Shown one piece after another: positions 7,242-40,970 of a DNA stretch of 64,000 bases. The stretch is from a plasmid. The notes beneath the pieces were generated by a model. The model saw only the letters and a list, made by a program, of their open reading frames with translations, did no database searches and was not told where the DNA came from. Position 1 is the stretch's first letter. Each line of letters opens with the position of its first letter. The translations under genes and the position numbers were made by a program. Where the stretch lies: the sequence record NZ_CP084013.1. One strand, 5' to 3'.

Positions 7242-7894
7242 TTGAACGCATCACCGTGGAGACCAACGATGAGACCGGCAACAATCCGGTCGAATACGAT
7301 TGGGAGTTCGACCCGGACGGTGTCTGCCACATGACCGGTGACGGGGACATGCCCGCCGTCTTCGAGGGGTCCGCCGCCATCGTGGAGGCGTTCAACCATG
7401 TCGGCATGAGCATCGTGAGCGGGGAGCGGACACCGCTGAAGGACGGCGATCACGCACTGCTCGCCCTTCTTGCCGCCGTCCTCGCCACCCTCGTCCCGTT
7501 CGTGGAGGGGAAGGACGGCGACCAAGTGGGATTCATGATGGGCGATACATCGAACGGCTTCAACGTCAATATCACGTCGGCGGAGTTCCTGGCCTGCTGC
7601 CGCTCCATGTGGATCGGCGCAGATGTCCTCCGTGGATTCGGCCGATATCTGAACTTCCGTTGGAATACGGTCCGCGAGGCGTGGGTGGAAGCCGGTTCCG
7701 GTCTCGCGTTCATCGGGGCGGACAGTCAGGTGGCATACATGCTGGAGACCGCCACGTCGAAAGGCGACAGCATCCGCTTCGACCCCATGGAAGGCAAGGA
7801 GGAAACCGTCCAACTGTTCCGTCTCCTGTTGGAGACGGCGAAATGCGCGGACATCCCGGTCCGATTCGCAGGAGGCCTCCGACAAGGTGAATGA
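7238..7894 (+). CDS. Hypothetical protein
   Basis: ATGA overlap. RBS gaaggagcaatc precedes ATG (MIERITVE...). Confidence 0.5.
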   Translation: MIERITVETNDETGNNPVEYDWEFDPDGVCHMTGDGDMPAVFEGSAAIVEAFNHVGMSIVSGERTPLKDGDHALLALLAAVLATLVPFVEGKDGDQVGFMMGDTSNGFNVNITSAEFLACCRSMWIGADVLRGFGRYLNFRWNTVREAWVEAGSGLAFIGADSQVAYMLETATSKGDSIRFDPMEGKEETVQLFRLLLETAKCADIPVRFAGGLRQGE

Positions 7895-7989
7895 CGCACG
7901 AGATAACGACGATAGCATTCGTTCTAAGCAGCGAGACGGTAAAACGGAAGTTAGTCAACCAAACCGTATCCGGGAAGAAAGAAAGACTA

Positions 7990-20456: not shown

Positions 20457-20900
20457 TCAGTCCTGATTTTTTTGAAGCCAATCGACTAGATCGGCAGCGG
20501 TCAGATCAGACAGCCTTCTATTGGTTCTCAATTGTCGCGCAACTTCATAGTCGTGAAGAAAATCGCTGATTTCGGACGTGGTCCAATCCTTGTTTCTCAA
20601 ATGTCGTTTCAATCGTTCCAAAGGCCAGTAAATGCGATGAGCCTCCAACATCAGCTCTTCAGCGTCTCTTCTATCTGTATCCCATTCAAAGACGAGAAGA
20701 TTGATTGCCTTCTGCCTGTCAATACCTAATTCAGCGAATACACGAGCAATATGCTTCCTTTCCTGTTTCCGTTCGAAAGCTAACGCCTGATTGACTTCCT
20801 CATTGACATTGTCTATTGCATTATCCTGGGCCGCATCTAATGCGACTGAACCTATTTGACTAATGGTGTCTACGATTAGATTTTTGTCTACCACTGTCAC
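20457..20900 (-). CDS. Hypothetical protein co-transcribed downstream of the Type IIG RM gene
   Basis: ATGA overlap with the RM gene stop. Lower GC than its surroundings. Confidence 0.45.
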   Translation of the reverse strand: MTVVDKNLIVDTISQIGSVALDAAQDNAIDNVNEEVNQALAFERKQERKHIARVFAELGIDRQKAINLLVFEWDTDRRDAEELMLEAHRIYWPLERLKRHLRNKDWTTSEISDFLHDYEVARQLRTNRRLSDLTAADLVDWLQKNQD

Positions 20901-23686
20901 ACCTCACTGCTACCTGTCATACGAGTGTATGACTTAAACAACACTTGCAGGCGCGTATCGTCATCGTCCTTCAGCCATTTCCCCGCGCCGAACGCCACGT
21001 CCGCGATCTTGTCCAGCTCCAGGTGGGCGGCGCGTAGGTCGGTCGGCATGTAGTCGGGGTCGTACAGGTCTGCCAAAGACTGGCCGGGATGGTTCGCTCG
21101 CGCCGCCAGCACGTTCCTGCCGGCCTCGATCAATGCGGCGCGGGTGTCGTCGTCGAGGGCGGGCAGAGGCAGGTTGTTCCAAACCACCGTGTTGCTGAAA
21201 CGGTAGTCTGATTTCAGTCGTCCGCCGACCGCCGCCTGCCAGACAATGAACATACGCGATTCGATGACCGCGAACGCCAGTCCGTCCGGATCGGGGCTGG
21301 TATAGCAAAGGTCGCTCACGATTACATTGGGTTCCAACGACAGGCAGGTGGCGTACTCACGACGGCCGCTGAATACTTTGGGAAGGCAGAGAAAGCGACC
21401 GGTAGGCTGGTGGTTCTCGTCGAACAGCCATGAGGTCGTGGCCTTCGCACGGGTAGGGGCCTTCTTCGAGGCGAGTCTCATCTCCCTGACGGCATCCACG
21501 CGTCGACGAAGGAATGCGGAGTTCCTGATTTCGGCGGGCTCCACATCGACAAGCCACAGGCACCAGCGTTCGATCCCGTTGATGAGTTCGCGCGACCCTC
21601 GGAACGGCCTCACGTATTTTGCCGCGATTGGGTCGGATATCGCTTGGTCGTGCTCCTCCCGATTGTCGAGGATGAGGTTGCCGCCGTCCGTGGGCTGGGA
21701 TCCGCGTCCGGCCGGAGACAGTTCCGAACTGAGCGGTTTCATTCTTTTCTCCACGAACACGTTCGGATCGTCGAGCAGGTATCCGTTGATGTTGTCCACG
21801 GTGCGGGCGGCTGGTTCCCCGTCAATGTCCGTGTATTCGAACAGGATCGGCGCCGGTTCCGACGTTTTGTCCATGCCGACGATGACGACATGCACGTGCG
21901 CGTTGTCGGTGGACTGGGCGTCCCAGGCGAACGTGCGGTGCGCGAACCGGATGCGCCATCCCTCGTCGAACAGGGGTCGGAACAGGCTGGGCACGGGCTG
22001 GCCCTGACTGATGCTGTTCGTGGACACGAACGCGAACGCCGCCCCCGGTTTGGCCAGGTATTCACTGGCCTTGCGATGCCAGCCTGTCGCGTAGTCGAGA
22101 TACCCGTCATAGCCTTTGTCCCATATAAGCCTCATGTCCTCTTTTTGACTGTCGCTCATGAGGTATTGTCCGATGAACGGCGGGTTGCCCATCACATAGT
22201 CGCAGTGGTCGCCGGGTAATAGTTCGTTCCAGTCGAGGCGCAGCGCGTTGCCTTGCCGGATGTGTGCCGTATCGGTGAACGGGAGTCGGGGCAGGCCGCT
22301 GATGGTCGACTCGGTGTCGTCCAACGCCTGCTGTTCCGCGATCCAGAGCGCGGTTCTTGCTACGGCGCATGCGAATCCGTTGATTTCGATGCCATGGAAG
22401 TGGCTGATGCTGACTTTGACCGGGTTGATGTCGTCGCCGAGGTCGAGGGCGAGTTGTCCGTCCTTGTCCAAATCGGCGAGGATCCGATTCTCGATGCGGC
22501 GCAATTCCAGATACGTTTCGGTCAGGAAGTTGCCGGAACCGCAGGCGGGGTCGAGGAACCGGAGGCCGGCGATTTTGTCATGCAACTTGTTGAGCGCGTT
22601 GGTGCGGGAACCGCCTGCGACCGGCCTGGCCTCCGCCCCCTCGAGTTCGGCTTTCAAACCGTCGAGGAACAACGGGTCGATGAGCCTGTGGATGTTCTTG
22701 ACGGACGTGTAGTGCATGCCGCCTTTGCGTCGTTCGTCATGGCTGAGGGTTTCCTCCATGAGGGAACCGAAGATGACGGGGCTGATGCCGCTCCAGTCGA
22801 AGCCTTCGCTGATTTCCAGCAGAGCGTCACGCAGTTCCTCGGTTAAAGGTGGTACGTCGATTTGGTCGGCGAACAGGCCACCGTCCACGTAGGGGAACGC
22901 TTTCAACGGTTCCGGCAGGTAACGACGCCGCTTCTCGATTGGTGTGTCCAACGCTTCGAACAGGTCGTACAGGTCTTCGCCCAGACGTTCGGGCGTGGAT
23001 GCCGCCACATAGTCGCGGAGCGCGTCCGGTTTGAACAGGTTCGCGTCCTCCGCATACAGACAGAACACGAGGCGCACGGTCAGCATCGCCAGCGCGTCAT
23101 GTTCAGACGGGTCATCGGGATGTTCGAAGCATTTCGCCAGGGAATCATGCAGTCTGGCGACTCGTTGGCCTGCTTTGACGGACAGTTTCTCCTGTTGGAC
23201 GACACGGGAGTTCTCGTGCGCGAACAGACGGCCAATCTCGTTGATATGCTCCGGCAGTTCCGCAAGCGTGAACTCCGATTGCGGCGTACGGGCCAAAGGG
23301 TCGGCTTCCAGATCGTAGAGGCGGAACAATCCGAAATTGCAGGTGATGAGCACGGACGGGTGTTCCGATGGCGGCAGGCTGTCGGAATACCGTTTCGCCT
23401 GTTCCACCGGGGTGACCATGGTTCCCTGACGTGGTTCCGGCTTGTCCAAATCCACGCCGAGGCTCTTCTGCTCGACGAGCACACGGGCTTGGATCATCAG
23501 CGCGTCGATGAACCCGTCCAATGCGGTGCGCCGTTCGAACCAGAGCGTCTGCCTGTCGCTCGTGTTCGGGATGAGCAGCACCTTGTCCAACAGGTCACGC
23601 CAGTACTGTTGGGTCTCGGATTTCTCGTCGCCTCGTCCCGCCCATGATTCGGCGAACCTGGCCGCCCTGCTCTTCAGATCATCCAT
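20897..23686 (-). CDS. Type IIG restriction-modification enzyme, MmeI family (endonuclease plus N6-adenine methyltransferase plus specificity domain in one polypeptide)
   Basis: FLDPACGSGNFL (motif I). GNPPFIG (motif IV, NPPF). N-terminal D...EQK nuclease motif. Multiple blocks recall MmeI (FPYVDGGLF, ISPVIFGSL, HYTS, RWCLWL, AHLELDK). The start was chosen at MDDLKSRAARF. The ORF is open to 23977. Confidence 0.75.
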   Translation of the reverse strand: MDDLKSRAARFAESWAGRGDEKSETQQYWRDLLDKVLLIPNTSDRQTLWFERRTALDGFIDALMIQARVLVEQKSLGVDLDKPEPRQGTMVTPVEQAKRYSDSLPPSEHPSVLITCNFGLFRLYDLEADPLARTPQSEFTLAELPEHINEIGRLFAHENSRVVQQEKLSVKAGQRVARLHDSLAKCFEHPDDPSEHDALAMLTVRLVFCLYAEDANLFKPDALRDYVAASTPERLGEDLYDLFEALDTPIEKRRRYLPEPLKAFPYVDGGLFADQIDVPPLTEELRDALLEISEGFDWSGISPVIFGSLMEETLSHDERRKGGMHYTSVKNIHRLIDPLFLDGLKAELEGAEARPVAGGSRTNALNKLHDKIAGLRFLDPACGSGNFLTETYLELRRIENRILADLDKDGQLALDLGDDINPVKVSISHFHGIEINGFACAVARTALWIAEQQALDDTESTISGLPRLPFTDTAHIRQGNALRLDWNELLPGDHCDYVMGNPPFIGQYLMSDSQKEDMRLIWDKGYDGYLDYATGWHRKASEYLAKPGAAFAFVSTNSISQGQPVPSLFRPLFDEGWRIRFAHRTFAWDAQSTDNAHVHVVIVGMDKTSEPAPILFEYTDIDGEPAARTVDNINGYLLDDPNVFVEKRMKPLSSELSPAGRGSQPTDGGNLILDNREEHDQAISDPIAAKYVRPFRGSRELINGIERWCLWLVDVEPAEIRNSAFLRRRVDAVREMRLASKKAPTRAKATTSWLFDENHQPTGRFLCLPKVFSGRREYATCLSLEPNVIVSDLCYTSPDPDGLAFAVIESRMFIVWQAAVGGRLKSDYRFSNTVVWNNLPLPALDDDTRAALIEAGRNVLAARANHPGQSLADLYDPDYMPTDLRAAHLELDKIADVAFGAGKWLKDDDDTRLQVLFKSYTRMTGSSEV

Positions 23687-23711
23687 GATTCCCAATGGTA
23701 TCCGGTTTCCC

Positions 23712-24302
23712 TCATGCCGGTCGGATATCGACCACATCATGCGGCGTGATCGTCCATAGGCAGGCCTGGATCCACCGGTCCGGCAGCCGTTTCGGATCCG
23801 CGATCGCGTTCGCCCTGTACTGGAGCCGTTTCTTTTCGGCCAGATCGTCCCAATGCTCGTCCAGCCACCGGTCGTACTCCTCAGGCGGCCATGTGCCGGC
23901 ATCCAGCGGGGCGCACGGACACCGGTTGATGACGCAATGGTATTGGTCGAAATCCGTGCAAAGCACCCGGTTCTCATCGACCCGCAGATGCAGGAGCTCC
24001 AACCCGTCGTACTGGTTGCGGAAGCCCGGATACCGTCGGTCGGGACGCGTATGCGCCCTGCCTTTCGAATCGACCCAGCGCGCCCACGCCCACAAGGGGG
24101 CCGCGTCCGGGTCCGGACGCGGCATGCCCTTGTGCTCCATTTCGCCCATCATCCACTCATAGGCGGGGCTGATGCCGTCCCACCAGTCCGAATCCCCGTC
24201 CTCGGCAATGGATTTCGCGCGCGCGGCGCTCCATGATGGAGTGTACGAACCGGAACGGTCGAACGCGGCCCTGACATCCGGCCACCGCTGGAACGAATAC
24301 AA
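23712..24302 (-). CDS. Hypothetical protein (Trp-rich) upstream of the RM gene
   Basis: Same-strand ORF directly upstream. Confidence 0.4.
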   Translation of the reverse strand: MYSFQRWPDVRAAFDRSGSYTPSWSAARAKSIAEDGDSDWWDGISPAYEWMMGEMEHKGMPRPDPDAAPLWAWARWVDSKGRAHTRPDRRYPGFRNQYDGLELLHLRVDENRVLCTDFDQYHCVINRCPCAPLDAGTWPPEEYDRWLDEHWDDLAEKKRLQYRANAIADPKRLPDRWIQACLWTITPHDVVDIRPA

Positions 24303-24837: not shown

Positions 24838-25116
24838 ATGACAAGCACTATTACGGAACCGGCACGCAGCTCACGCCTCAACATGCGCCTCACGCCAGAA
24901 CAGCGCCAAACCATAGATATAGCGGCCTCTCTCAAAGGCTCCTCCATAACTCAATGGGCCATCGACCATCTCGTCACCGACGCACGCCGGGATATCGAAG
25001 AGGAGACCGTCACCCGTCTACCCTCCAAGGCATTCGACGAATTTCTCAAGGCGCTTGACAGACCCATGCCGAAGGCCGCGAAGGATCTCATCGAAATGGA
25101 ACCCGACTGGATATGA
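24838..25116 (+). CDS. DUF1778/TacA-like ribbon-helix-helix antitoxin
   Basis: RLNMRLTPEQRQTIDIAASLKGSSITQWAI. It is coupled to a GNAT gene through an ATGA overlap. Confidence 0.65.
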   Translation: MTSTITEPARSSRLNMRLTPEQRQTIDIAASLKGSSITQWAIDHLVTDARRDIEEETVTRLPSKAFDEFLKALDRPMPKAAKDLIEMEPDWI

Positions 25117-25604
25117 GATTCACCACACCACGGCGCATAGAGTCCTCCGACATGCTCGATGGCTTTGACTGCGGCATTACGCTCATTGATGAATGGCTGT
25201 CCACGAGATCCCGTTCTGCCGAAAAACAGGGAACGGCCGTCGCGTACGTCACCTACGCCGAATCAGGGGAACTCGCCGGATTCTACTCTCTCAGCGCACA
25301 CGCGATGGAACGCTCCAATATCGCCGGTGGATGGCTACAGAGGAACGTTCCAGAGCGAGTGCCCATGATACTGCTCGGTATGCTCGGCGTGGACAGACGT
25401 TTCCAAGGCGAAGGCCTCGGCAGGAAACTGTTGCACGATGCGGTCATACGTTCCTTGAACATCAGCTCCGAACTCGGGGCGAGGGCCCTCATAGTGGATC
25501 CCGTGGATTCAGCCGCAGCTAGATTCTACGAGAACAACGGTTTCCAGCACATTCCGGAATCAGAACGAATGTTCCTCAAACTCGCGGGCAAGCATCTCGT
25601 CTAG
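25113..25604 (+). CDS. GNAT-family acetyltransferase toxin (TacT-like)
   Basis: FDCGITLIDEWL. The acetyl-CoA motif is RFQGEGLGRKLL. It is paired with a DUF1778-like antitoxin. Confidence 0.65.
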   Translation: MRFTTPRRIESSDMLDGFDCGITLIDEWLSTRSRSAEKQGTAVAYVTYAESGELAGFYSLSAHAMERSNIAGGWLQRNVPERVPMILLGMLGVDRRFQGEGLGRKLLHDAVIRSLNISSELGARALIVDPVDSAAARFYENNGFQHIPESERMFLKLAGKHLV

Positions 25605-26255
25605 CATTCTTGGCTTCCTCCATCCAGCAGATCGCGCAGCACCCACAGGGCGAACCGGGCGCCGTTCAGCGCATCCTCGGGAAGGCCGCACGGATATGAG
25701 ACCTCGACCCCCGCATGCACGTTCCCGTCCGCATCCACGCCATCCAGCATGGTGACGGCCAGGGTCAGGCATCGCAATCCGCGTTCGGGCGTCGCGTCCC
25801 CGCGGACGAGCAGCCAGACTGGCGGCATCGCCATCGGCTTGCCGGGATCGAACGAACGCGCCTCGTCGGCGACGATACCCGGTCCGAACGGTTCCCGCAG
25901 TTCCAGCCCGTACGTGATGTTCCCGGCACGATATTCGAGCTTGATGCGGGCCGTCGTGCCGGACGGTTCGGATGTTTCGGATTCGACGGCGTACAGCCGG
26001 TAGCGGATGGAATCAAGCATTATCCCCATGGTAGTCCGGGTGCGCGGTTCCTGTTCTCGTGGGGGCCGTCGCGTGCCGTCCGCGTTGAACTGGGCGAGCT
26101 GCCCGATCGCATTGCCCGTGTTCTGCAACGCGCCATTGAGTAGACGCACACGCTCCCCCCATATCGTTGGTCTCCAACGCGAGACGCAGCTGGCCGATGG
26201 CCGCGTTCACCTGATTGCGGTACGTGTAGTTATTGTTCTCGGATGGCGCCGTCAT
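25601..26255 (-). pseudogene. Hypothetical gene split by a frameshift at a C6/G6 homopolymer (26154-26159). This may be a pseudogene, a phase-variable gene or a sequencing error.
   Basis: ORFs 26013..26255 and 25601..26149 are offset by +1. Both halves contain the repeated peptide NA(A)IGQL(..)L, which indicates a single ancestral gene. Confidence 0.45.
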
Positions 26256-26295
26256 GCCATCCGCCTTCCTTTCGTCCTTAGAACTGATATGCGTT

Positions 26296-26865
26296 TCAGC
26301 GAATCAGCTCCAGAAGCCCTCGGTTCTCGTTCCTGCCGAACCGGTGCAGTCTTGAATATTCCTTGAGCGCGTGTTCGAGCCGGCCGGGCTCAGCCCAGTA
26401 TCGTTCCAGCCATGCGCGGCTTTTCACCTGCTTCATGCCCAGTTCTCTTTTGCAATAGTCGGAGGGCTTCAGCCGTTTGGAGCCGTTCGTGTATTTGCCG
26501 TACATGCCCTCGTTGATGATGACCAGCATTTCGATTTCGGGATGGGTTCGCAGGTTCACGACCTCGGCCGCATGCTCGTAGCCTCGAGGTATGCGCAGTA
26601 CATCCGAGTCCGAGTCGACTATACGTATGATCAGCAGCGGGTGTTTGCCGTATGACATGTTGAGGAACCGGTCGAGCATCCGCTTCGATTCCTTGCGGGT
26701 GAAATACCATGTGCCTCGCAGCTGATTAGGCACGATAAGCTCGTTCGGCACGGTCAGTTCGCCGCGTTCGATAAGGGTCGTGAGTATGTACTGTTCGGCC
26801 ACGCCCTCGCAGACGAACAGCACATACTGGCCTTCCGCATTAAGCATGCACGTACCTTTCCGCAT
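26296..26865 (-). CDS. TOPRIM/DUF4435-like nuclease (AriB/OLD-family-like partner of the ABC ATPase)
   Basis: N-terminal VLFVCEGVAE (TOPRIM Glu). IRIVDSDSD (DxD). It overlaps the upstream ATPase gene. Confidence 0.45.
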   Translation of the reverse strand: MRKGTCMLNAEGQYVLFVCEGVAEQYILTTLIERGELTVPNELIVPNQLRGTWYFTRKESKRMLDRFLNMSYGKHPLLIIRIVDSDSDVLRIPRGYEHAAEVVNLRTHPEIEMLVIINEGMYGKYTNGSKRLKPSDYCKRELGMKQVKSRAWLERYWAEPGRLEHALKEYSRLHRFGRNENRGLLELIR

Positions 26866-28021
26866 AATCCTGGAGGGCGCGGACGGCCGCGTATGAGGGC
26901 GCGGTACCGGGTACCCGGTTGGCGAAGAAGGAAACGCTCTTCTTCAAATCGGTGCGGCCCAGATATGCGCCCAGATTCCGGAGGGCGAAGCCTTTTCCAT
27001 CGCGGACGGCGAACCATATCGAATCCTTGCGGGTGAAATGATCCAGCAGCTCCGGATAGTGGGTGGAGAACAGGAGCGTGGCCCCATGCGGGTTCGTGAC
27101 CGGGGAGGCGAACAGGTCCATGATGGCGAATACGAGCTGCTTGTTGATGCTGTTCTCCAGTTCGTCCACAATCAGATAGCCACCCGCGCGCAGTGTCTCC
27201 AATGCTCGGCCGACCAGTGCGCCGCCTCTCAGGGTACCGGATGAGACCATGTTGACCAGCGAGTTCGGGGTGACCTCCCGCTCCTTGCCCTCATTGCGGA
27301 ATTTCAGATGGATTCCGTCCTTGTCGTAGTCGAGACGTTCGATGCTGGCATCGAACAGCGTCACGACGGGGCGGGCCGGGCTGACGGTGAGCGTCGGGGA
27401 CACCGGCAGCAGTTCGGTCGCGATGTCGGTGTCCTTGACGAAGGCCCCGCAAATACTCCGGTCGGGCGGCAGATACCGTTTCGCGTCGGCGGACAGTTCG
27501 CCCCGGACGCCGGGCCTGCCCACGTTGCGGGATGAGAGCACGGTCCACCGTTCCGGATCCAACGTGCCGTTCATGGCGGAGGCAAGCATTTTCTTGCTGA
27601 GCTTGCCATGGTGGATGCTCAGGGTCTCACGGATGAACCTCAACGGCGTGCGACCCTCGCCTGTCCGCTCGAGCAGGCTGTCGATGAGATGGAAGCGACC
27701 GTCCTGTTCGAACAGCGCGCGCACCCCGATCCGGTCGTCCATGGTGTCGTACAAAGGGAACAGGTCGGGGTTCAACGATCCCAGCGACATGCCGCCGGCG
27801 ACGGCGAGGGCGAGTTCGGTGACCCTCAACGCGGTGGTCTTGCCGGAGGCGTTGATGCCGGCGACGCCGATGGCCGTGTTGATGCTGATGTTGCGTGCGG
27901 CGCCGTCGAGCATGTGCGTGTATCCGGGTTCCCTTACGGCGTCGATGGCGTACAGGTCCATCCTGCATTCATGGTTTTCGTATAGGCGCAGGCCGCTGAT
28001 GGCGTAGCTCAACAACCTCAT
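26840..28021 (-). CDS. ABC-type ATPase (AAA_21/OLD-family-like; AriA-like)
   Basis: Walker A GINASGKTT. ABC-signature-like SSGTLRGG. Walker B YLIVDELENS. H-loop LLFSTHYPE. Start at ATG 28021 with RBS GGGAGAAAG. Confidence 0.6.
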   Translation of the reverse strand: MRLLSYAISGLRLYENHECRMDLYAIDAVREPGYTHMLDGAARNISINTAIGVAGINASGKTTALRVTELALAVAGGMSLGSLNPDLFPLYDTMDDRIGVRALFEQDGRFHLIDSLLERTGEGRTPLRFIRETLSIHHGKLSKKMLASAMNGTLDPERWTVLSSRNVGRPGVRGELSADAKRYLPPDRSICGAFVKDTDIATELLPVSPTLTVSPARPVVTLFDASIERLDYDKDGIHLKFRNEGKEREVTPNSLVNMVSSGTLRGGALVGRALETLRAGGYLIVDELENSINKQLVFAIMDLFASPVTNPHGATLLFSTHYPELLDHFTRKDSIWFAVRDGKGFALRNLGAYLGRTDLKKSVSFFANRVPGTAPSYAAVRALQDYAERYVHA

Positions 28022-29147
28022 GCTTTCTCCCTTGTAAACGTTTTTTCTGTATACATAGGCTATCACTGAATGGAGACCGTCGATACCCGGAAACCGTCAG
28101 ATCGCCTCCCCCCCCCCTGACTCCCAGGCAGCCGGGCGTCGCCGTCCGTTTCGGGTCGGGCATGAACTGAGCCGGATTATTCCCGATCGCCGTCAGCAAT
28201 GCGTCCATGTCGAGCGCGTACAGGCCGCTGTTCGACTGCGGGTTCAGCTCGATCACATGCGGCCGCCCGGCATCATCCAGATACAGGTCCATCACGTATG
28301 GGCCTTCGACTTCGCCGCGTATCGCATGCGCCGCCTCGTGCGCGAACGCCTCATACAACCGTGCGATGTCGGGATGCGATTCGATGCGCCCGCTGTTGCG
28401 CGTCTCCTCCATGCGCGGATCATACCGGTCACCCCGATTGTCGGCGGGCGTGAACCGTTCGATGCAGCCGGCGCCGCACACCGGTTTCCCGCCTATCACC
28501 TGCATCCGGTATTCGTAGCGCATGCGCGCCTTTTGCTGGACGAGCACCGCGTCCGGCTCGCCCTCGAACAGTGCGAGATCGTAGCCGGCCCACCGCCAGG
28601 CGGCGAACGGGATATGCTCCGGCTTCCCGCCATACTCGTCCGTCTGCATGAACGTGCCGTCCGGGTCGATGAACGCGAGCGGCAGGCGTTTCTCCCTGAG
28701 CATGAACTTGGCGACCACGCCCGAACCGGGATGCCGGTCGAGCATGCCCCGCGCCGCCACATCGATCGCATCCCCGTCGCAGGCGACGGATCGCGCGTCG
28801 CGCCCCAGAAACGGGCGCAGCGAGGGCATGAGATCCCACCGGTCGACGTTCGAGGCGGGCAACGTCAGCTGATCCATATACGGCCTGATTCTCACCACGC
28901 CGTAATGGGCTAGCGTCATCGGATCCGGCCCCCCGTACGATCGGCCGGCCACGCGCACATGCGGGTCCGGGAGGATACGTGCCGCGGCCTCCAGGCGCGC
29001 CGCCTGTTCGCGCCAATCCTCCGGATCCCCGTCGCCCGGCACAACCTCGCCGACGTATCGTCCCCATGCGGCGCGATACGCTTCCGGCGCGTCCATCACG
29101 TCGGACGGGCGTTCCGTGGGGATGATGTCGATAAGCCAGCCGGTCAA
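27969..29147 (-). CDS. ATP-grasp domain protein. The 3' end is uncertain because of the G10 tract.
   Basis: EYRMQVIGG. C-terminal VMDLYLDDAGRPHVIELNPQSNSGLY (ATP-grasp Mg-binding E/N). Confidence 0.5.
   Translation of the reverse strand: MTGWLIDIIPTERPSDVMDAPEAYRAAWGRYVGEVVPGDGDPEDWREQAARLEAAARILPDPHVRVAGRSYGGPDPMTLAHYGVVRIRPYMDQLTLPASNVDRWDLMPSLRPFLGRDARSVACDGDAIDVAARGMLDRHPGSGVVAKFMLREKRLPLAFIDPDGTFMQTDEYGGKPEHIPFAAWRWAGYDLALFEGEPDAVLVQQKARMRYEYRMQVIGGKPVCGAGCIERFTPADNRGDRYDPRMEETRNSGRIESHPDIARLYEAFAHEAAHAIRGEVEGPYVMDLYLDDAGRPHVIELNPQSNSGLYALDMDALLTAIGNNPAQFMPDPKRTATPGCLGVRGGGGDLTVSGYRRSPFSDSLCIQKKRLQGRKHEVVELRHQRPAPIRKP
28108..28117. repeat. Homopolymeric C10/G10 tract (simple-sequence contingency repeat candidate)
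   Basis: cctCCCCCCCCCCtga. It lies about 90 bp upstream of the ABC ATPase start and inside the 3' end of the upstream ATP-grasp ORF. Confidence 0.8.
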
Positions 29148-30571
29148 TGTTCTCCCTCCAGTTCGGGCATCCAGTTCTCCACCATCGGCCGACGCTTTCC
29201 TTTCGGCACCGTCCGTTCGTAGAAGGTGCTGCGTTCGGCGGGCGCCATGTCGATGAGCCAGTAGTCGTCGCCGTCGCGCATGATGTCAAGCGACCATTGG
29301 CCCGCCAGGTCGAGACCGGGCAGCAATCCGGCCACGTGCGTGGCGACCAGGTCCTTCGTGGCCTCGTATTCGCGCATGAGCGACGGTTCTCGCAGCTTGT
29401 AGGTGACCGCGTCGTGCCGCATGTGCGGGTTGTCGGAATCCGGCCAGTCGCGGAAACGATGGTTCATCACCTTGGGATCCCAGTACGGGTGGATGCCCAG
29501 CAGCTCATCCGTGTCGCAGTCGATGAAGCAACGGTATTCGCATCGCAGCGGCAGGCCCATGTAGATGGTCGGCAGGTCATGCGTATCGGGGATGTATTCG
29601 CGGACCACCATCTCGTTCGTCGTGGAAACCCCGTACGTGGCAGGTTGGCTCAACGGTCCGGCCATTTCGACCGCTTGGGATTGGAGGTACAACAGGTATT
29701 CGCCGATCTGCATGACCTCGTGCGGTTCGGTGACGTGCGCGTTGCGGAAATCATACTTGTTGCTGAACGTGCCGGTCTTGAGGAAATAAGATTCGTCCGG
29801 TTTCAGGCGGAACGCGGCCTGCGCCCACCGATCCACCACATCCAATGTGGCGGCGGTCAGCGACTCGTATTCGACGCGCGACAATTGCAACAGGGTCAAC
29901 GGCGCTTTGGCTATCGTGGTCTTCGGGATGCGGAAGAACGTCTTGCCTTCGTTCGCCTTGACCAATGCGGGCAGCCAATGGCCTATGCTCGCCGGGTTCA
30001 TGTCGAGCATTCGGTACATGACCGGATCCAGGTCGAGCAGGTCGAGGCCGGTGCGGAACATGCCGTACGCCTCATGCCGTTGCCTCGCGGAACGTTTCGG
30101 ATCCGTGGCGCGCCGCCACATATCCAACAGGAGCGGATAGTTCACCGCATCAATCTGACGGTGGATGAGCTCGCCCGCCAACTGGGGGCGCTCCCCCGTC
30201 TGCAGGGCATTCACGTCCGATTCCGTCACATACTTTTCCGGGACGGGAGCCAATGCCGGAATCGTGGTCAGACGTTCCCCGTCGAACCGGATGACGCCTG
30301 TATCCGACAGCAGTTCGCGCACGATGCGCGCATCCAACGCCAACGCCTCGTCCGACAGCCCGTGTCCGGAACGGGATTCGACAACGGTCTTCGCGTCCGG
30401 ACCCAATGGTCCCGTGGGCGCATTCTTCCGGTCGAGCACGTTCGCATGGTAGGAGCGTTCGAACTCGCGCAATAGTCCGGGCGTGGTGCTGAGCATGGCG
30501 GCCGCCGTGTCCACGTCCAACGGTTGCGGCTTATCCGCGTGCAGCAGCCGGTCGAGAAAGCCGGTCATGAT
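29144..30571 (-). CDS. Second ATP-grasp-like protein with an N-terminal extension
   Basis: VVREYIP...CEYRCFIDCD and SLDIMRDGDDYWLIDMAPAERS follow the ATP-grasp pattern. RBS GGAGGAA. Confidence 0.4.
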   Translation of the reverse strand: MMTGFLDRLLHADKPQPLDVDTAAAMLSTTPGLLREFERSYHANVLDRKNAPTGPLGPDAKTVVESRSGHGLSDEALALDARIVRELLSDTGVIRFDGERLTTIPALAPVPEKYVTESDVNALQTGERPQLAGELIHRQIDAVNYPLLLDMWRRATDPKRSARQRHEAYGMFRTGLDLLDLDPVMYRMLDMNPASIGHWLPALVKANEGKTFFRIPKTTIAKAPLTLLQLSRVEYESLTAATLDVVDRWAQAAFRLKPDESYFLKTGTFSNKYDFRNAHVTEPHEVMQIGEYLLYLQSQAVEMAGPLSQPATYGVSTTNEMVVREYIPDTHDLPTIYMGLPLRCEYRCFIDCDTDELLGIHPYWDPKVMNHRFRDWPDSDNPHMRHDAVTYKLREPSLMREYEATKDLVATHVAGLLPGLDLAGQWSLDIMRDGDDYWLIDMAPAERSTFYERTVPKGKRRPMVENWMPELEGEH

Positions 30572-31038
30572 TCCTCCAGATCCCTGATTTGTTGCTCCAG
30601 TTTCCCGCAGGTCTTCGCCTGACCCAACGCCTTGCGCAGCCGTGGCACCAGCTCCTCGCATGAAAGTTGCCGACTGTCCTGCGGTATCGCCTCCAACAGT
30701 TCCTGCAACGTGTCCAATCCGTCATCCAACAGGGCTTTCAAGGTATTCGTTTCCCGATTTCTCCTCAACACGTCGATCCACGCTTCGGCAAGGCGGCCGC
30801 CCTCGAACAGGCGTCCGCCATGCCATTTCGCAAACACCCTGCCTCCATCGAATGCGAGAATCGTACGTGTCCGGTCGTACCGTTCCACCGGCTCCCCGTT
30901 CATGTCCACGCGGCCCAGATACAATGCCGTCACATCATCGTCATCGGTGAACGACCAGACACGATAGTGCGGATCCTCGCGGCGCAACCGTTCCTCCGCC
31001 ATGCCGGCGAACCGGATTTCAGTATCGATTTTGTCCAT
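30565..31038 (-). CDS. Hypothetical protein (first gene of the ATP-grasp operon)
   Basis: Internal ATG (MDKIDTEIRF...). Its stop overlaps the next start. Confidence 0.4.
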   Translation of the reverse strand: MDKIDTEIRFAGMAEERLRREDPHYRVWSFTDDDDVTALYLGRVDMNGEPVERYDRTRTILAFDGGRVFAKWHGGRLFEGGRLAEAWIDVLRRNRETNTLKALLDDGLDTLQELLEAIPQDSRQLSCEELVPRLRKALGQAKTCGKLEQQIRDLEES

Positions 31039-31151
31039 CAGTTGTTCCTTTCCGCATCGGTTCCCGTATGCGTTCCACATTTCGATGCCGCCATCGGAAT
31101 GTTCCGGCTCTTCTCGGAAGGATGGTGGATATTACAAAATGGGTGTACATT

Positions 31152-31171
31152 TGTATACATATATGTATATA
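31152..31171. promoter_or_regulatory. AT-rich near-perfect palindrome in the divergent promoter region (operator candidate for the Phd/YafQ pair)
   Basis: TGTATACATATATGTATA(T)A lies 20 bp upstream of the antitoxin ATG. Confidence 0.45.
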
Positions 31172-31190
31172 TTCCTTTTGGAGGTTTGCG

Positions 31191-31475
31191 ATGGCAGCAG
31201 AAACGATCACCGTCCCATTGGACACGATTGTTCCGATCAGCAAATTCGGGCATGCGGGGGCAAGCAGCGAGTTCGCCAAGGTTGAGGACGATACACCTGT
31301 CACCGTGCTCCGCAACGGAGAACCCACCTATTTCATCATCAACGCGCACGACTACCGCATCTACCGGCAGGCGGTCATAGCTGCCGAAAACAGGCAGGCG
31401 AGACACGAGGCGCTGAACGGTATCGGCAAAAGGTTCGGCAGCGTGGACGATCTGATGGCGGACCTCGATGCTTAA
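31191..31475 (+). CDS. Phd/YefM-family antitoxin
   Basis: PISKFGHAGASSEFAKVEDDTPVTVLRNGEPTYFIINAHDYRIY. Confidence 0.65.
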   Translation: MAAETITVPLDTIVPISKFGHAGASSEFAKVEDDTPVTVLRNGEPTYFIINAHDYRIYRQAVIAAENRQARHEALNGIGKRFGSVDDLMADLDA

Positions 31476-31770
31476 CGACATATCCCGGACGCCTACCTTC
31501 GAACGAGACTGGAAACGTCTGAGACGGAAGCACTACGATTCCGCCAAACTGCGTAAGGCGATACAAACCCTGATGGCCGAAGACGCGGATACGCTGATCC
31601 ACACGTACCGGGATCACTCGCTGAAAGGCGAATGGGCGGGATTCCGCGAACTCCACATCGAGGGTGACTGGCTTCTTATCTACCGGATCGATCATGGCGA
31701 ACTGTGCCTCGTGCTCACCCGCACCGGCTCGCACGATGCCTTGTTTGGTCGTGGAGGGAAGAACTTCTGA
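31468..31770 (+). CDS. YafQ/RelE-family toxin
   Basis: DHSLKGEWAGFRELHIEGDWLLIYRIDHGELCLVLTRTGSHDALF. It overlaps the antitoxin stop. Confidence 0.65.
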   Translation: MLNDISRTPTFERDWKRLRRKHYDSAKLRKAIQTLMAEDADTLIHTYRDHSLKGEWAGFRELHIEGDWLLIYRIDHGELCLVLTRTGSHDALFGRGGKNF

Positions 31771-32126: not shown

Positions 32127-32220
32127 TTCTCGACCGCCGAATACAGGCAGGTGACACGGGTCTCGTAATTAGTTGCTTGTTTTCTAGTATTTTCTATACT
32201 TATATGGTATCATATTGTTT

Positions 32221-32808
32221 ATGAAGTTGTCGGAGTACGCGGCCAAGCATGGCATCCAGTATCGTGCCGCTTGGAACCGGTTCAAGGCGGGGAAGATTCC
32301 CGGCGCTTGGCAGGACGAGTCGGGGACGATAATCGTGCCCGACGAGACGCAGGCGCGCCTGAACGACGCCGCCGTGTACGCCCGTGTCTCCGACCCGTCG
32401 AAACGCAAGACCCAACTGCCCGCGCAGCAGAAGCGTGTGGAGGATTGGGCCATCGCCAATGGTTATCGGGTGGTCGCGTCCGTGTCCGAGGTCGGTTCTG
32501 GGGTGAACGACAAGCGTCGCCGTCTGTCCGCGTTGCTGAAGCGCGATGATTGGGGGACGCTCATCGTGGAGCACAAGGACAGGCTGACCCGGTTCGGGTT
32601 TGAATGGTTCCGTCTGTTCATCGAACAGCAGGGGCGTCGCATCGTGGTCATCAACGAGGCGGGCGACGACCGGGCGGACTTGGCGCAGGATTTGGTGAGC
32701 ATCATCTACTCGTTCAGCGCCCGCCTGTACGGGCAACGGCGTTCCAAACGCGCGGAGGCCATGGTCCGCATCGTGGAGGATGGTGAGCGCGATGCCGTCC
32801 AAGCGTAA
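32221..32808 (+). CDS. tnpA: IS607-family TnpA serine recombinase
   Basis: YARVSDPSKRKTQL. GSGVNDKRRRLSALL. MerR-like N-terminus. Confidence 0.75.
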   Translation: MKLSEYAAKHGIQYRAAWNRFKAGKIPGAWQDESGTIIVPDETQARLNDAAVYARVSDPSKRKTQLPAQQKRVEDWAIANGYRVVASVSEVGSGVNDKRRRLSALLKRDDWGTLIVEHKDRLTRFGFEWFRLFIEQQGRRIVVINEAGDDRADLAQDLVSIIYSFSARLYGQRRSKRAEAMVRIVEDGERDAVQA

Positions 32809-34243
32809 CGTCTCCTATCATGCGTACAACGCGGCCAGTCCGATGAACAATCGGAAGCTCGCGGAGTTCGACTGTCTGTTGCCGGTATGGCGTCGCGGCC
32901 TCGTGTTTGCAATGGGCGGTTGGACGCGCGTATTGACATCCGGCGGGGAGCTGCCCCGTTGGATGGATACTAAGAGTTTCCCCGGCTGGCTGTCCCAGCG
33001 CCAGTGGGATTCCGTGACGCGTCAGGCCAAAGGCGCGTTGGATTCTTGGATGGAACTCAGGGAGACCGAGTTTCGCCGCGTCGTCAACGGCAGTAGTCTA
33101 AGCCCGGACATGAAGCGGGAACTGTACGACATCAACCGGCGGCATGAATGGTGGAAGCCGGAGGATGATGAGGCTCACCGCATGGCGCGGCGCATCATCA
33201 AACACCTGCGCAAACAAGTCCCGTTCCCCCGCATGGGACGTTGCCGGACGATGAGCATGGACGGGAAGATAGCCCGAGTCGAGGATGCCATGAACGCCGT
33301 CCATTATCGTTGGTGGGTCACGGTCAGCACCTTGGACAGGGGGCGTCCGATTCGCATCCCGATAATCGCCGACCCCCGGTTGGAAGAGAATCTGGCGGTC
33401 AACAACGAGACCTTGGCGAATCATCTGCAAGCCACCCACACCCCGGAGGAGGGGTGGACGTTCCATGTGATGACCACCAGCCCGAAGGCCACGCCCAGAC
33501 GGACGGGCGAGATTATCGGCGTTGACTGGGGAGTGCAAAGCCTGTTCGCCACCAGCGACGGGCGACTCTTGGGACTCGGACTGTACGCATGGCTGTCGGA
33601 ACGCGACGTGGAACTCGAAACGCTCACCAAGGAGCTGAACCGTAGCCATATCCCCTGCCGGGAATCGAAACGTTACCGTCGGTTGAACAAACGAATACGC
33701 GACCATGTGACCAACGAGACCAACCGGCTGCTCAACCGGCTGGGCGAACAGGACATCAAGGAAATCGTCGTAGAGGAACTCGACTTCCGCCACGGCGGAC
33801 TCACCCGCAGGATGAACCGCATCGTCAGCCGTGCGGGACGCAACGCGGTCAAGCGCAAACTCCAAGACCTGCAAGACAACAAGGGCGTCACCGTCACCAA
33901 AGTCAACCCCGCATACACATCGCAGGAATGTCCGAACTGCGGATGCACCGACCCGCGCAACCGCAAAACCAGAGACCTGTTCCGCTGCATCTGCTGCGGA
34001 TACACGCTTCATGCCGACATCAACGCCAGCCGCAACATACGTGCGAGACGTTCTCGCAGGGATGGATGGCGTTTCATCGGCAGGAAGCAAATCCTCGCCA
34101 CGCTCCGCAACGAGCACGGTGAGCGATGCTCCCGCCCCGACCATCATCGGGACGGGAGACACGTCGCCAAGAGTGCGACTACCCCACGGAACGCGAAAAC
34201 GTCACCGGAGGTCAAAGCTCCTAACGGAATAAAAAACCATTAG
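32792..34243 (+). CDS. tnpB: TnpB RuvC-like RNA-guided endonuclease homolog
   Basis: IIGVDWGVQ. VVEELDF. CPNCGC...CICCGY. HADINASRNI. Confidence 0.8.
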   Translation: MPSKRNVSYHAYNAASPMNNRKLAEFDCLLPVWRRGLVFAMGGWTRVLTSGGELPRWMDTKSFPGWLSQRQWDSVTRQAKGALDSWMELRETEFRRVVNGSSLSPDMKRELYDINRRHEWWKPEDDEAHRMARRIIKHLRKQVPFPRMGRCRTMSMDGKIARVEDAMNAVHYRWWVTVSTLDRGRPIRIPIIADPRLEENLAVNNETLANHLQATHTPEEGWTFHVMTTSPKATPRRTGEIIGVDWGVQSLFATSDGRLLGLGLYAWLSERDVELETLTKELNRSHIPCRESKRYRRLNKRIRDHVTNETNRLLNRLGEQDIKEIVVEELDFRHGGLTRRMNRIVSRAGRNAVKRKLQDLQDNKGVTVTKVNPAYTSQECPNCGCTDPRNRKTRDLFRCICCGYTLHADINASRNIRARRSRRDGWRFIGRKQILATLRNEHGERCSRPDHHRDGRHVAKSATTPRNAKTSPEVKAPNGIKNH

Positions 34244-38191: not shown

Positions 38192-38489
38192 TCGGGATCT
38201 CCTCCTTGATGCATTCGGGGCATTGCCCGTCCTTCCAGCCGGCCGGATCGATCATGATGTTCGTGCAGGTCGAGCATTCGGGCAGCCGGTGCGCCGGGCA
38301 GTAGTGCATGTCGCGTTCCAATTCGGGATGCTCGTCCTTGTACAGGATCTGCCAGCCGTCATCCTTCGCGTCGAACAGCAGATCGTCCTCGTACGCATAC
38401 CAGTCGTTGATCCGTTGTTCGCAGTTGTGGTCGTCGCATTCGAGCCTGAACCAAGCGCGGCTGTCAAACGTTTCTTTGATTCTTGCCAT
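38178..38489 (-). CDS. Small Cys-rich (zinc-finger) protein
   Basis: Internal ATG with a GGAGG RBS. CDDHNC...CPAH..CSTC..CPEC. Confidence 0.45.
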   Translation of the reverse strand: MARIKETFDSRAWFRLECDDHNCEQRINDWYAYEDDLLFDAKDDGWQILYKDEHPELERDMHYCPAHRLPECSTCTNIMIDPAGWKDGQCPECIKEEIPNERS

Positions 38490-40251
38490 CAAGCCTCCGT
38501 TCCTTTGCGTGCGTCCGACGGTATGCGTCGCTCGGCGAGACGTCGGGAGTCGCCGGGCCTTCGACGGCCAGCAAGTCGCCGACATATTCCATATCCACGT
38601 CGCGTTCGTTGAACGCCTTGCGCGTGTACACAAGACGGTTCATGTTGGCGTGGGACAGTACCCAACGCGCTTTCTCCGCGCGTTCGGAATGGTCGTTGTC
38701 GGCAATCGGCCTATCATGCAGGACGGTACGCTTCAACATGGTTCTCAAGCTTTTGACCTCAAGATAATAGTCGGATTTCAGCTTGAACATGTACCCGTCG
38801 GCGTCATACACCACAACGCCCTCACGTGTGGAATCATGACGCTCCTCGTCCAACATGCTCCACAGTGCCTCCCGCTCCTCGTCGGATTGGAAGACGCCCA
38901 ACACCTCCGGCCGGGCGAAGAACCCGTCCATGTCAATCAGCTTGTCGGCGTCATGGTCGATATGGAAGTCCACCGTGTTCCCGATGGCGTGCAGGAACAC
39001 GAGCTGAGACGTATCATACTTGACGATGTGACGGTCGGACTCTTGGTCGATGACCTCGAACGCCAACGTCACGTCGGCATCATGGACGATGTTCCACAAC
39101 GCCTGTTCCTGACCGCCGTCCAACGTCTCCTTGAAGAGCCGTTGTATGAGATACGAGTAGTCGGTCTGTCCGCTCTTCGACCAGAAACGCCACGAACCGT
39201 CTCCGCGTGCGGACACCAAGCCGAGGAACCCGTTCTCCTTGCGTTCCACGCGCACCGGGAACTTGAGACGCTTGTCGATGTTCTCGCGGGTGGTCTGCTC
39301 GTTCTCCCCGAGGTTGAAGAACTTCTCGAATCCTCGTGCCACGACCCTGCCGTTCCCGTCGAGGAACAGGCCGCGCGCCTTGCTGGAATACTCGTCCCAA
39401 CGCTGGTTCTTGAACGCGTCACGACTGAAGTTGCAGGCGTACACGTCGGTCTCGCCTTTGACCGGACGGACGTGTACGTTGTCGGAGTCGCGCATGATGT
39501 CAAGCAGGTTGCTCCCGTCGGCGGAGAAGTCGGCGAACCCGTCTTCGGTCGTATGCGCACCCTGTTCCAGCCACTTCGAGTAACGGTCCAGTGTCCACTT
39601 CACGCCATCCTTGAGCGACGGCATGTCCAAACGGACGGTACCGGTCGCATCACGCCCATTGCTTGAGGCCGCAGTGTAACCCATTTCGGCGTCGTCCACG
39701 GTGCGGGCATTGCCGTCCCACAGCAGTCCCACGTCAACCATCACCGTCTCCCCCATTGGGTTCATACGGTACACGCCGTCCGTCTTCATGACGCGAACGT
39801 TGACCCAACGGCTGTCACGTTCAAGGCACCCATGCCAAGTCTCATACTGGGTGCGCAGATACTTCTCCGGCACACGGTCGCTCTCGACGCGGATCCTGTT
39901 GCGTTCCAGCAGTTCGTCCAACGGCGTGTTGAATGTGAAAGTCTCAACATGCGCCTTGTGACGGACGGCAATCTGCACCTCGTCCACGCAGAAACGCGGG
40001 TTGACATGCTGGGAGTCGCTGATGACATTCACGCCTTTGGCGAGCAGGTCGCTGATGATGGTATGCGCCTGACGGACGAGAATCCTGTTCAACTGTGGAT
40101 TCATGGTTTCATGCCATGCCTGACGGCCTCCCGCCATCATTTCACGCAAACCGTCCAAGCTGACGATTACCGTATTCGAATCGACATGCTTCCGCGCCCA
40201 AGTGCTCTTTCCCGAGCCGGGCAGTCCTCTAAGAATGGTCAAAGTGGTCAA
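38464..40251 (-). CDS. Bifunctional polynucleotide kinase (P-loop) and RNA ligase fusion (T4 Pnk/Rnl-like RNA repair enzyme)
   Basis: N-terminal ILRGLPGSGKST. C-terminal nucleotidyltransferase motif I VERKENGFLG (KxNG). Later VVVYDADGYMFKLK. TTG start. Confidence 0.65.
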   Translation of the reverse strand: MTTLTILRGLPGSGKSTWARKHVDSNTVIVSLDGLREMMAGGRQAWHETMNPQLNRILVRQAHTIISDLLAKGVNVISDSQHVNPRFCVDEVQIAVRHKAHVETFTFNTPLDELLERNRIRVESDRVPEKYLRTQYETWHGCLERDSRWVNVRVMKTDGVYRMNPMGETVMVDVGLLWDGNARTVDDAEMGYTAASSNGRDATGTVRLDMPSLKDGVKWTLDRYSKWLEQGAHTTEDGFADFSADGSNLLDIMRDSDNVHVRPVKGETDVYACNFSRDAFKNQRWDEYSSKARGLFLDGNGRVVARGFEKFFNLGENEQTTRENIDKRLKFPVRVERKENGFLGLVSARGDGSWRFWSKSGQTDYSYLIQRLFKETLDGGQEQALWNIVHDADVTLAFEVIDQESDRHIVKYDTSQLVFLHAIGNTVDFHIDHDADKLIDMDGFFARPEVLGVFQSDEEREALWSMLDEERHDSTREGVVVYDADGYMFKLKSDYYLEVKSLRTMLKRTVLHDRPIADNDHSERAEKARWVLSHANMNRLVYTRKAFNERDVDMEYVGDLLAVEGPATPDVSPSDAYRRTHAKERRLDGKNQRNV

Positions 40252-40271: not shown

Positions 40272-40970
40272 TCAGTTCTCCTGAAACATGCGAACAAGTT
40301 CCACTTCGGACACGGGGCGCATGTTCCACGCGTCCAATCCCACGTTGATTTCGTTACGGTTCTTGAACTCATGGGGAGTGTTCGCATGGGTGTGACCGTG
40401 CAGCAATCGCATGCTCTCCCCCACTTGAGGAATCGCATACCGTCGAAGCTCCGACTTCGCCCAATTGGAAGCCACGTCATCCGCTGCCGGTAGGTCGAAG
40501 TCCTCACGCCATTGGAAATGGCAGAGGAACACGGTCATAATGGTTTCGCCGTCCGTGATGTCCGTCATGCCGATACGCCCGATTTCACCGAACGCCTCGG
40601 TCAAATCCTTGAAGCCCTTGCTCTTCCCGTACAGCACGTCGTCATGGTTTCCGAGAATCAGATGACGGTTATTGCGAGGACAGCGCAAGCTTTTGACATG
40701 CATAAGCGCCTGTTGAAGACTCCAAGCGCCTCCGCTGCATAGGTCCCCAAGAATGTAGAGTTCATCATTCGGACCTACGATTTCGTTGATATGGTCGGTC
40801 ACGTCCATGTCATGCCGGTACCAGTTGACGCAATCCTTGACCTGCATGTGGGCTTCGTTAGCCTGTTGCTTGATGGTATTGTCCGACGTGAATCCGGTTT
40901 TCGCATATCCCCGCAATGCGGCCACGAACGGGTGGGCGAAGTGGGTGTCGGAGGTGAAGTATTTAGTCAT
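40272..40970 (-). CDS. Metallophosphoesterase (candidate 3'-phosphatase / 2',3'-cyclic phosphodiesterase partner of the kinase-ligase)
   Basis: YFTSDTHFAH, GDLCSGG, GNHDD and GHTHAN. Confidence 0.65.
   Translation of the reverse strand: MTKYFTSDTHFAHPFVAALRGYAKTGFTSDNTIKQQANEAHMQVKDCVNWYRHDMDVTDHINEIVGPNDELYILGDLCSGGAWSLQQALMHVKSLRCPRNNRHLILGNHDDVLYGKSKGFKDLTEAFGEIGRIGMTDITDGETIMTVFLCHFQWREDFDLPAADDVASNWAKSELRRYAIPQVGESMRLLHGHTHANTPHEFKNRNEINVGLDAWNMRPVSEVELVRMFQEN

Follow-up and report, generated by a model that had tools for sequence, protein, structure and literature searches.

AbiL is counted among the systems that combine an ATP-binding cassette (ABC) ATPase with a TOPRIM protein, and ATPases of the AAA15/21 type occur with a variety of small partners (PMC13064643, PMC11464382); PARIS provides a plausible model for such pairs, in which the ATPase sequesters a nuclease and releases it on a trigger (PMC11464382). 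Separately, tandem operons of R2K.2 and R2K.3 ATP-grasp enzymes, sometimes accompanied by an ADP-ribosylglycohydrolase, have been described in actinobacteria and firmicutes (Burroughs, Zhang and Aravind 2015, PMC4431377), and these tandem enzymes are predicted to be protein-peptide ligases in phage–host conflict (PMC4431377). Genes resembling both kinds stand side by side in the plasmid DNA analysed here, a stretch of 64,000 nucleotides from sequence record NZ_CP084013.1 (the window), in which five minus-strand genes, g1 to g5 in the order of reading, encode a 157-residue protein, two ATP-grasp enzymes (g2 and g3), an ABC ATPase (g4) and a small, probably TOPRIM-like protein (g5). A first-pass annotation of this DNA had proposed that the ATP-grasp enzymes feed into a nuclease formed by g4 and g5 as a new variant defence system, and had offered as its alternative that they are an adjacent, independent module.

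The data favour the alternative. We hold, with a probability of roughly 0.7, that the 4.7-kb block, which lies in the variable conflict region of a Bifidobacterium megaplasmid of the pMP7017 family, is mosaic and consists of three separable modules. On our best reading, g1 and g2 form the first module, g3 the second, and g4 and g5 the third, a self-contained defence cassette of the AbiL/PARIS class. The block aligns over its full length, at 92.7% identity and with its gene order kept, to pMP7017, a conjugative megaplasmid of Bifidobacterium breve JCM 7017, and parts of it are also matched in two B. longum megaplasmids; by this similarity the window is a member of the pMP7017 family. The pMP7017 counterparts of g1 to g5 are B7017_p0166, p0167, p0169, p0170 and p0171, with an additional 126-residue gene (p0168) between the counterparts of g2 and g3.

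The reading to be weighed against this is that the five genes are one system, the ligases making a peptide or amino-acid modification, on either member of the g4-g5 pair, on a target protein or on a nucleic acid, that the pair needs or is regulated by. We consider this unlikely, chiefly on the neighbourhoods of distant relatives; in all, several hundred loci related to the block were compared. The search for g5 loci, with a profile built from 12 sequences, gave 53 distinct loci in which g5 is below 85% identity (in 31 of them the sequence continues for 3 kb or more past the ATPase gene). The corresponding set for g2, drawn from IMG/VR and the genomes of Firmicutes and Actinobacteria, numbers 100 distinct loci with less than 80% identity. 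A g4 gene lies directly upstream of g5 in 102 of the 106 loci with enough upstream sequence, and in all 102 the two are separate open reading frames (ORFs). By contrast, the partner modules are absent from 52 of the 53 distant g5 loci and from every distant g2 locus: g2 was found near none of the distant g5 genes, a g3-like gene near one (locus L135), and neither g4 nor g5 near any distant g2, where a g3-like gene occurred once (L031). Read from the g3 side, eight distant backbones contained the pair in L135 only, and its sister locus, L136, shares that backbone but lacks the pair. Copies of the pair in which g5 is 58-70% identical also occur in unrelated contexts free of any ATP-grasp gene, beside AbiEii and a second AAA_15/21 pair (L004, L005, L008). 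The proposal of a new variant system is thus not supported by the neighbourhoods, the ATP-grasp genes keeping company with the pair in this lineage and in L135 only.

The same separation is seen within the megaplasmid lineage. Among its distinct sequence variants, g2 and the pair are not positively associated: 17 carry both, eight the pair without g2, six g2 without the pair (a figure that counts L142, which bears the pair behind an insertion at the junction) and one neither. Several megaplasmids keep g3 without g4 and g5, and in DS1566 p1 and DFI.7.60 the ATP-grasp genes are present but the pair is not. Pair-free relatives (L003, L064, L002, L054, L057 and L062) depart from the window right after the g3 stop, and in two of them (L003 and L064) g3 is followed by a homologue of the small gene that the window has after g5; from this alignment, therefore, g4-g5 is a cassette of about 1.85 kb, inserted precisely between the stop codon of g3 and the gene after it. 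In L142 (OKVT01000001.1), an AT-rich insertion of about 1.8 kb separates g3 (3850-4908) from g4 (6743-8005) and begins right after GTCAGGG, where other alleles bear a G tract; the g3/g4 junction may be a recurrent insertion site. Contigs of the pMP7017 family are filed as viral in IMG/VR (L053-L065, L217-L227 and L235-L251, with viral genome entries of up to 186 kb), and the viral provenance of these loci should not be taken at face value.

Three sets of observations pull the other way, towards a single system. First, the genes lie on one strand with overlapping or near-abutting ends: g1 and g2 overlap by ATGA, g2 and g3 by TTGA, and g4 and g5 by the 8 nt ATGCTTAA, and in the window g3 ends 52 nt inside g4, because a run of ten G residues (G10) sets the g3 reading frame and so ties it to the g4 start. 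A scan for promoters and terminators detected nothing of either kind inside the five-gene block, and the sole hairpin that it gave (26240-26263) has no T-run on the gene strand; the five genes may therefore be co-transcribed. Secondly, within the lineage the pair, where present, always stands right after g3. Thirdly, a second juxtaposition is found in the divergent locus L135, where relatives of g4 and g5 (36% and 39% identity) lie some 1.4 kb downstream of a g3-like gene (42%) on one strand with it, the order being g3 relative, 140-residue gene, ADP-ribosylglycohydrolase, g4 and g5 relatives. The L135 g5 belongs to a different sub-branch, sharing more identity (up to 52%) with other family members than with the window g5, which is itself nearer to copies without an ATP-grasp neighbour (70%) than to the L135 protein; the two cases therefore represent independent insertions downstream of an R2K gene, more than would be expected from random placement.

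The simplest reading of the two juxtapositions, judged from the sequences, would be that related plasmid backbones have in common an accessory region tolerant of insertions; the backbones of the window and of L135 have further genes in common, for example one for a MazG-like protein. We give little credence to a functional reason behind them. One form that it could take is that R2K ATP-grasps on actinobacterial plasmids belong to an RNA- or translation-repair counter-defence set, beside which AbiL-like cassettes repeatedly land by virtue of a shared substrate such as a tRNA or a translation factor, with the G tract acting as a phase switch for g4-g5 through the g3 stop; this, too, seems to us improbable. 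We therefore keep to the three-module reading in what follows.

The ABC ATPase call made for g4 holds in every motif: Walker A (GINASGKT, 55-62), a signature-like sequence (SSGTLRGG, 260-267), Walker B (LIVDELE, 283-289) and the H-loop (STHY, 319-322) were all located. The protein matches Pfam AAA_21 (E-value 1.7e-12), and the suggested kinship of the pair with PARIS or OLD is upheld, as part of a PARIS/AbiL/OLD class, by its matches to the PADLOC models AbiLi (1.4e-28, residues 9-373 of a 408-residue ORF, most of the protein) and AriA (5.8e-13, residues 244-342 only). A sequence search of the PDB with g4 found nothing. Its pMP7017 orthologue, B7017_p0170, is among the transcriptionally active genes of that plasmid (PMC10832533, Table S2). 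By analogy with the described pairs, we infer that g4 is the sensor or regulator half of the cassette.

The small partner, g5, gave no significant match in Pfam, PADLOC, PHROGs or NCBIfam, so that the earlier TOPRIM call fails, for g5 itself, at the level of profile searches. A word-indexed search returned close relatives only; exhaustive searching with HMMER raised a family of 616 cluster representatives (clusters at 50% identity, E-value at most 1e-3), nearly all of 170-200 residues. Relatives were found in none of the isolated phages, and PLSDB gave pMP7017 only. The motifs that had suggested TOPRIM, CEG (E14) and DSDSD (78-82), fared differently in an alignment of 89 diverse members: E14, E18, D78, E106 and K142 are invariant and G15, T101, P103, E104 and I105 nearly so, but D80 varies among the members and either D or E stands at position 82, giving DSxx[DE] rather than DxD. 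In the AlphaFold2 (AF2) model of g5, which has a predicted local distance difference test (pLDDT) score of 90.4, E14 follows strand 1 (9-13), D78 follows strand 3 (71-77) and the PEIE sequence with E104 and E106 follows strand 4 (94-100), a predicted placement of the invariant acidic residues which is how a TOPRIM active site is laid out. On the model we take g5 to be probably a TOPRIM-like effector: the invariance of E14 and D78 and the fold-level matches weakly favour that part of the earlier claim, and the DxD motif does not survive. A second class of g5 alleles matches over residues 1-160 and then runs into a different and longer C-terminal tail, in ORFs of about 210-300 residues (P0003, P0004); it is found in the megaplasmid copies L056, L058, L063, L065, L145-L152 and L220-L227.

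There is some chance, which we put low, that g5 is instead a Rossmann- or receiver-like adaptor, a regulator or a non-nuclease effector of g4, in which case the pair would differ from PARIS and AbiL and might be, for example, an ATPase-controlled toxin–antitoxin (TA) system with another activity. The empty profile searches and the loss of the canonical DxD, with D78 alone invariant, would be natural on that account, as would the lack of any significant Pfam match among the 89 relatives and of any Foldseek match to the PDB at an E-value of 0.001 or below with the g5 model; the g5 profile, set against PDB sequences, found GliG alone, a spurious match. Set against this, besides the TOPRIM-like placement of E14, D78 and E104/E106, are the weak fold-level matches, of which OLD class 2 and GajA give the longest aligned stretches (129 and 122 residues), and the nature of the obligate partner, an AbiLi-type ATPase whose known partners are TOPRIM-type nucleases (PMC11464382). 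Faint sequence matches lean the same way, namely AbiLii in two of the 89 relatives (weak, best 9.1e-5) and, at noise level, OLD-like_TOPRIM in two (best 0.013) and DUF4276 in one (0.029). DUF4435 was found neither in g5 nor, for the 89 relatives, in a list of 25 of the 27 families that they matched, and Pfam gave no HNH domain in g5 or in those relatives.

If the TOPRIM-like reading is right, g5 would be a metal-dependent nuclease acting through E14, E18, D78, E104 and E106. By analogy with PARIS and AbiL, g4 would hold or control this small effector and release or activate it on infection, and the outcome of activation would be abortive infection or growth arrest. The products of g2 and g3 would work apart from the pair, as protein or peptide ligases that depend on ATP and target proteins of the host or the invader, as predicted for their relatives (PMC4431377, PMC7824862).

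For g2, the earlier ATP-grasp call is borne out by structure and by nothing in the profile searches, where no Pfam match was found at an E-value of 1 or below, including to the R2K profiles, and no PADLOC or NCBIfam match. The protein matches phrog_12834, of function not known (E-value 2.8e-52), and its family comprises relatives at 193 IMG/VR loci and 40 genome loci. An AF2 model built on 34 relatives (pLDDT 85.6) has chains of Schizosaccharomyces pombe Cdc123 (4zgo, 4zgq) as its top five Foldseek matches in the PDB (E-values 2.7e-4, for 4zgo, to 1.3e-3, probability 1.0), followed by LysX, D-Ala-D-Ala ligases (Ddl) and biotin carboxylases. The residues K264, K271, E319, E344-Y-R346, D428 and D440 (474-residue numbering) are invariant among the 34 sequences (46-90% identity) and include the acidic positions that an ATP-grasp should have; K264 and K271 are two lysines seven residues apart, as in the RAGNYA strand region of the R2K clade, a correspondence matched on sequence only. 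On the model, therefore, we take g2 to be a Cdc123-like R2K-clade ATP-grasp of a phage-type family, with an extra N-terminal region of about 210 residues ahead of the ATP-grasp part. A g2 profile of 14 sequences, searched against PDB sequences, found no ATP-grasp chain and a single, spurious match (YesE). Alignment of the g2 family with g3 by hhalign showed no relation (probability 0.7%), and the two are therefore not recent duplicates.

Relatives of the catalytic half of g2 (residues ~180-457) occur at 26-35% identity in isolated phages (H6-H12), namely Staphylococcus SPbeta-like phages, Streptococcus phage Javan420, Fusobacterium phage phiFN37 and Clostridium phage Maintenon; they are annotated as hypothetical, except in Javan420, where the label 'glutamate synthase large chain' is apparently a misannotation. 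In gut phage contigs, the commonest upstream neighbour of g2 relatives is a radical-SAM gene. A link between g2 relatives and tRNA arrays was considered and dropped, since tRNA genes within 10 kb of 10 out of 60 loci make too loose an association to use. Three entries in the protein database look like g2-g3 fusions (P0024, P0025 and P0084; 692-693 residues, 98-100% identity), one of them bearing R2K Pfam domains; either the fusions are real or gene calling read through the TTGA overlap. The companion gene g1 has no match in Pfam, PADLOC, PHROGs or NCBIfam and travels with g2 within the lineage: L001, L002 and L056-L061 have 99% identical copies upstream of g2, and L055 and L063 have a variant at 42-44% identity.

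The ATP-grasp call for g3 was confirmed by Pfam, in which R2K_3 scores 30.8 bits (E-value 3.9e-7) against a gathering cut-off of 26.3 and R2K_2 falls below its cut-off (19.9 bits, 7e-4); its relatives bear PF14243 and/or PF18299. Conserved residues are K147, E212-x-R214, D287 and E300-x-N302 (348-residue numbering). The defining mark of R2K.3 is that ExGD replaces ExN in the last strand (PMC4431377); the standard ExN, and not ExGD, is seen in g3 and in each of its 14 aligned relatives, and g3 is therefore assigned, from its sequence, at the level of the clade as an R2K.2/R2K.3-like ATP-grasp, its family within R2K being ambiguous. Scanning IMG/VR with the g3 alignment returned loci of the megaplasmid lineage only; in some relatives a 126-residue gene precedes g3.

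The C-terminal end of g3 depends on the G tract. Canonical g3 has 348-349 residues, and its stop would fall at 28097-28099, where relatives end in ATC TGA; the window form is longer because G10 shifts the frame. The tract is the only run of eight or more G in the window, and matches to G8 number three against 3.1 expected from base composition, so that a lone run is not unexpected. Across 14 distinct contigs from independent assemblies that share the flanks, the allele G(n)AGGCG[A/T]TCTGA occurs with n = 6, 7, 8, 9 or 10; the remaining alleles have AGGGAGGAG at this position and no comparable length variation. As predicted from the sequence, the stop is the canonical one when n is 6 or 9, lengths of 7 and 10 (the latter in the window and in L220) add 44 codons and bring it inside g4, and n = 8 places it 46 nt before the g4 start, the ATP-grasp core being untouched throughout. 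The variation looks like genuine slippage, and the tract would then be a slippage-prone repeat that alters the C-terminal tail of g3 and the position of its stop relative to the start of g4.

It is possible, though we think it the less likely case, that G10 is a homopolymer error of sequencing or assembly with no biological role, and that the true g3 ends at ATC TGA. Homopolymers are prone to error, the composition makes one G10 unsurprising, a G9 would give back the canonical stop, and the next gene, with a G-run of its own (G6 against G5), appears to be frameshifted too. However, an error would have to account for five lengths in independent assemblies, half of the 14 contigs being out of frame, for the recurrence of G10 in L220, for the steadiness of the tract-free alleles, and for a protein cluster (P0289; 247 member sequences) that has a 392-residue form as its representative. 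We therefore retain slippage as the better account of the tract. The second run is a G6 at 26155-26160 on the minus strand, where pMP7017 and L003 have G5; in the window it splits an otherwise continuous frame, from the small gene after g5 into an ORF of 182 residues, into ORFs 26013-26255 and 25601-26149, apparently by frameshift.

The features of the block and of its surroundings are collected in Table 1. The ORF list and the sequence confirm the G10 tract and place the five genes where the first-pass annotation had them, and its lengths for g1 (157 residues) and g3 (392 residues) stand, but g2 has 474 residues rather than 475.

Table 1. Positions, in the window, of the five genes, the junction features and the neighbouring genes.
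Feature	Position	Strand	Description
g1	30565..31038	(-)	157 aa; ORF
g2	29144..30568	(-)	474 aa; Cdc123-like R2K-clade ATP-grasp (from structural model)
g3	27969..29147	(-)	392 aa, TTG start; R2K-clade ATP-grasp
g4	26840..28021	(-)	393 aa; ABC ATPase, AAA_21/AbiLi type
g5	26296..26847	(-)	183 aa; 189 aa if upstream ATG used
Poly-G tract G10	28108..28117	(-)	3' tail of g3, 86 nt upstream of g4 ATG
g4-g5 insertion cassette	approx. 26256..28096	(-)	~1.85 kb; from comparison with pair-free relatives
Small gene marking right-hand cassette junction	26013..26255	(-)	From alignment; directly after g3 in cassette-free relatives
MmeI-like type IIL restriction-modification enzyme	20897..23977	(-)	Full length, all five MmeI Pfam domains
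DUF3841 gene	23712..24302	(-)	Upstream of and overlapping MmeI-like gene
IS607-type element (serine recombinase and TnpB) and two TA pairs (antitoxin/YafQ-type; DUF1778/GNAT)	32215-34243, 31068-31770, 24838-25604	(+)	
Kinase-Rnl1 fusion	38464..40251	(-)	595 aa; AAA_33 polynucleotide-kinase-like and T4 Rnl1-type RNA ligase; upstream of g1
Metallophosphatase	40272..40970	(-)	232 aa; upstream of g1

The surroundings form a conflict island, made up of the MmeI-like type IIL enzyme (whose pMP7017 homologue is p0174; PMC10832533), DUF3841, the DUF1778/GNAT and YafQ-type TA pairs and the IS607 element, with Lar in relatives. The IS607 element is not at the corresponding position in pMP7017. That plasmid is reported to have 14 tRNA genes (PMC10832533); the window has none.

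The context of the ATP-grasp genes also includes RNA repair. In Pseudoclavibacter soli (L031, NZ_AUIC01000006, 7628-13362), a head-to-tail cluster on one strand comprises a kinase-phosphatase-Rnl1 fusion (770 residues), a g2-like gene (490 residues), an RlaP nucleotidyltransferase (197 residues) and an R2K_2/R2K_3 ATP-grasp (427 residues); it is the sole locus outside Bifidobacterium with both ATP-grasp types, and they are embedded there in RNA-repair genes. Such genes stand beside g2 relatives in L031, the window and L054 only, which hints, from one independent locus, that the R2K ATP-grasps may have a role around RNA or translation repair. In L135 (6777-9168) and L136 (8001-10326), and also in L134 (4414-5940), a 140-residue gene and an ADP-ribosylglycohydrolase come after a distant g3 relative; this gene order echoes the published linkage of R2K enzymes with ADP-ribosylglycohydrolases (PMC4431377) and suggests a possible protein-modification target.

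With the ATP-grasp genes recognized as neighbours of the defence pair rather than parts of it, a tempting false lead is removed, and the pair itself comes into focus. Its small partners, of about 180 residues, have no Pfam, PADLOC or NCBIfam model and are strictly paired with AbiLi-type ABC ATPases, so that current defence-system callers would miss the cassette or label its ATPase only. The conserved acidic residues of g5, the variation of poly-G length at the cassette junction in gut metagenomes and the RNA-repair context of the R2K enzymes are offered as leads.

Compared with known systems, then, the best reading of g4-g5 is a member of the AbiL/PARIS class with a new, unannotated small effector family. 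It resembles AbiL (AbiLi/AbiLii) of Lactococcus lactis in its AbiLi-type ATPase and differs in its effector, the 183-residue g5 being much shorter than AbiLii. The g5 protein has no AbiLii match of its own, and two of its 89 relatives match weakly; PADLOC rules would therefore not call AbiL here. With PARIS it shares an AAA15/21 ABC ATPase, a separate effector (the TOPRIM nature of which is only probable for g5) and a frequent location on mobile elements. However, the AriA model covers the C-terminal third of g4 only, g5 and its relatives have no DUF4435, and the proteins are smaller than AriA (~55 kDa) and AriB (~35 kDa; PMC11464382), g5 being about 60% of the size of AriB. In OLD (class 1 and class 2) and GajA the ATPase and TOPRIM parts are fused, whereas here they are two genes. 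Gabija also requires the UvrD-like helicase GajB, and no helicase gene lies in or beside the block; Septu is set apart by a PtuA match at an E-value of only 0.05 in PADLOC and by the lack of an HNH (PtuB) domain in g5. The ATP-grasp tandem is of an already known kind, the tandem R2K operon, in having two R2K-clade genes and, in distant g3 relatives (L135 and L136), a following ADP-ribosylglycohydrolase gene. It departs from the published operons in that g2 lies outside the Pfam R2K models, is recognized by structure only and has the N-terminal extension, in that g3 has ExN and not ExGD, and in that the g2-g3 pairing is limited to this plasmid lineage and the one Pseudoclavibacter locus. Eukaryotic Cdc123, which functions in eIF2 assembly (PMC4431377), is the best structural match of the g2 catalytic region, and g2 has the two conserved lysines seven residues apart; the sequence identity is only about 15%, and nothing links g2 to the eIF2 role.

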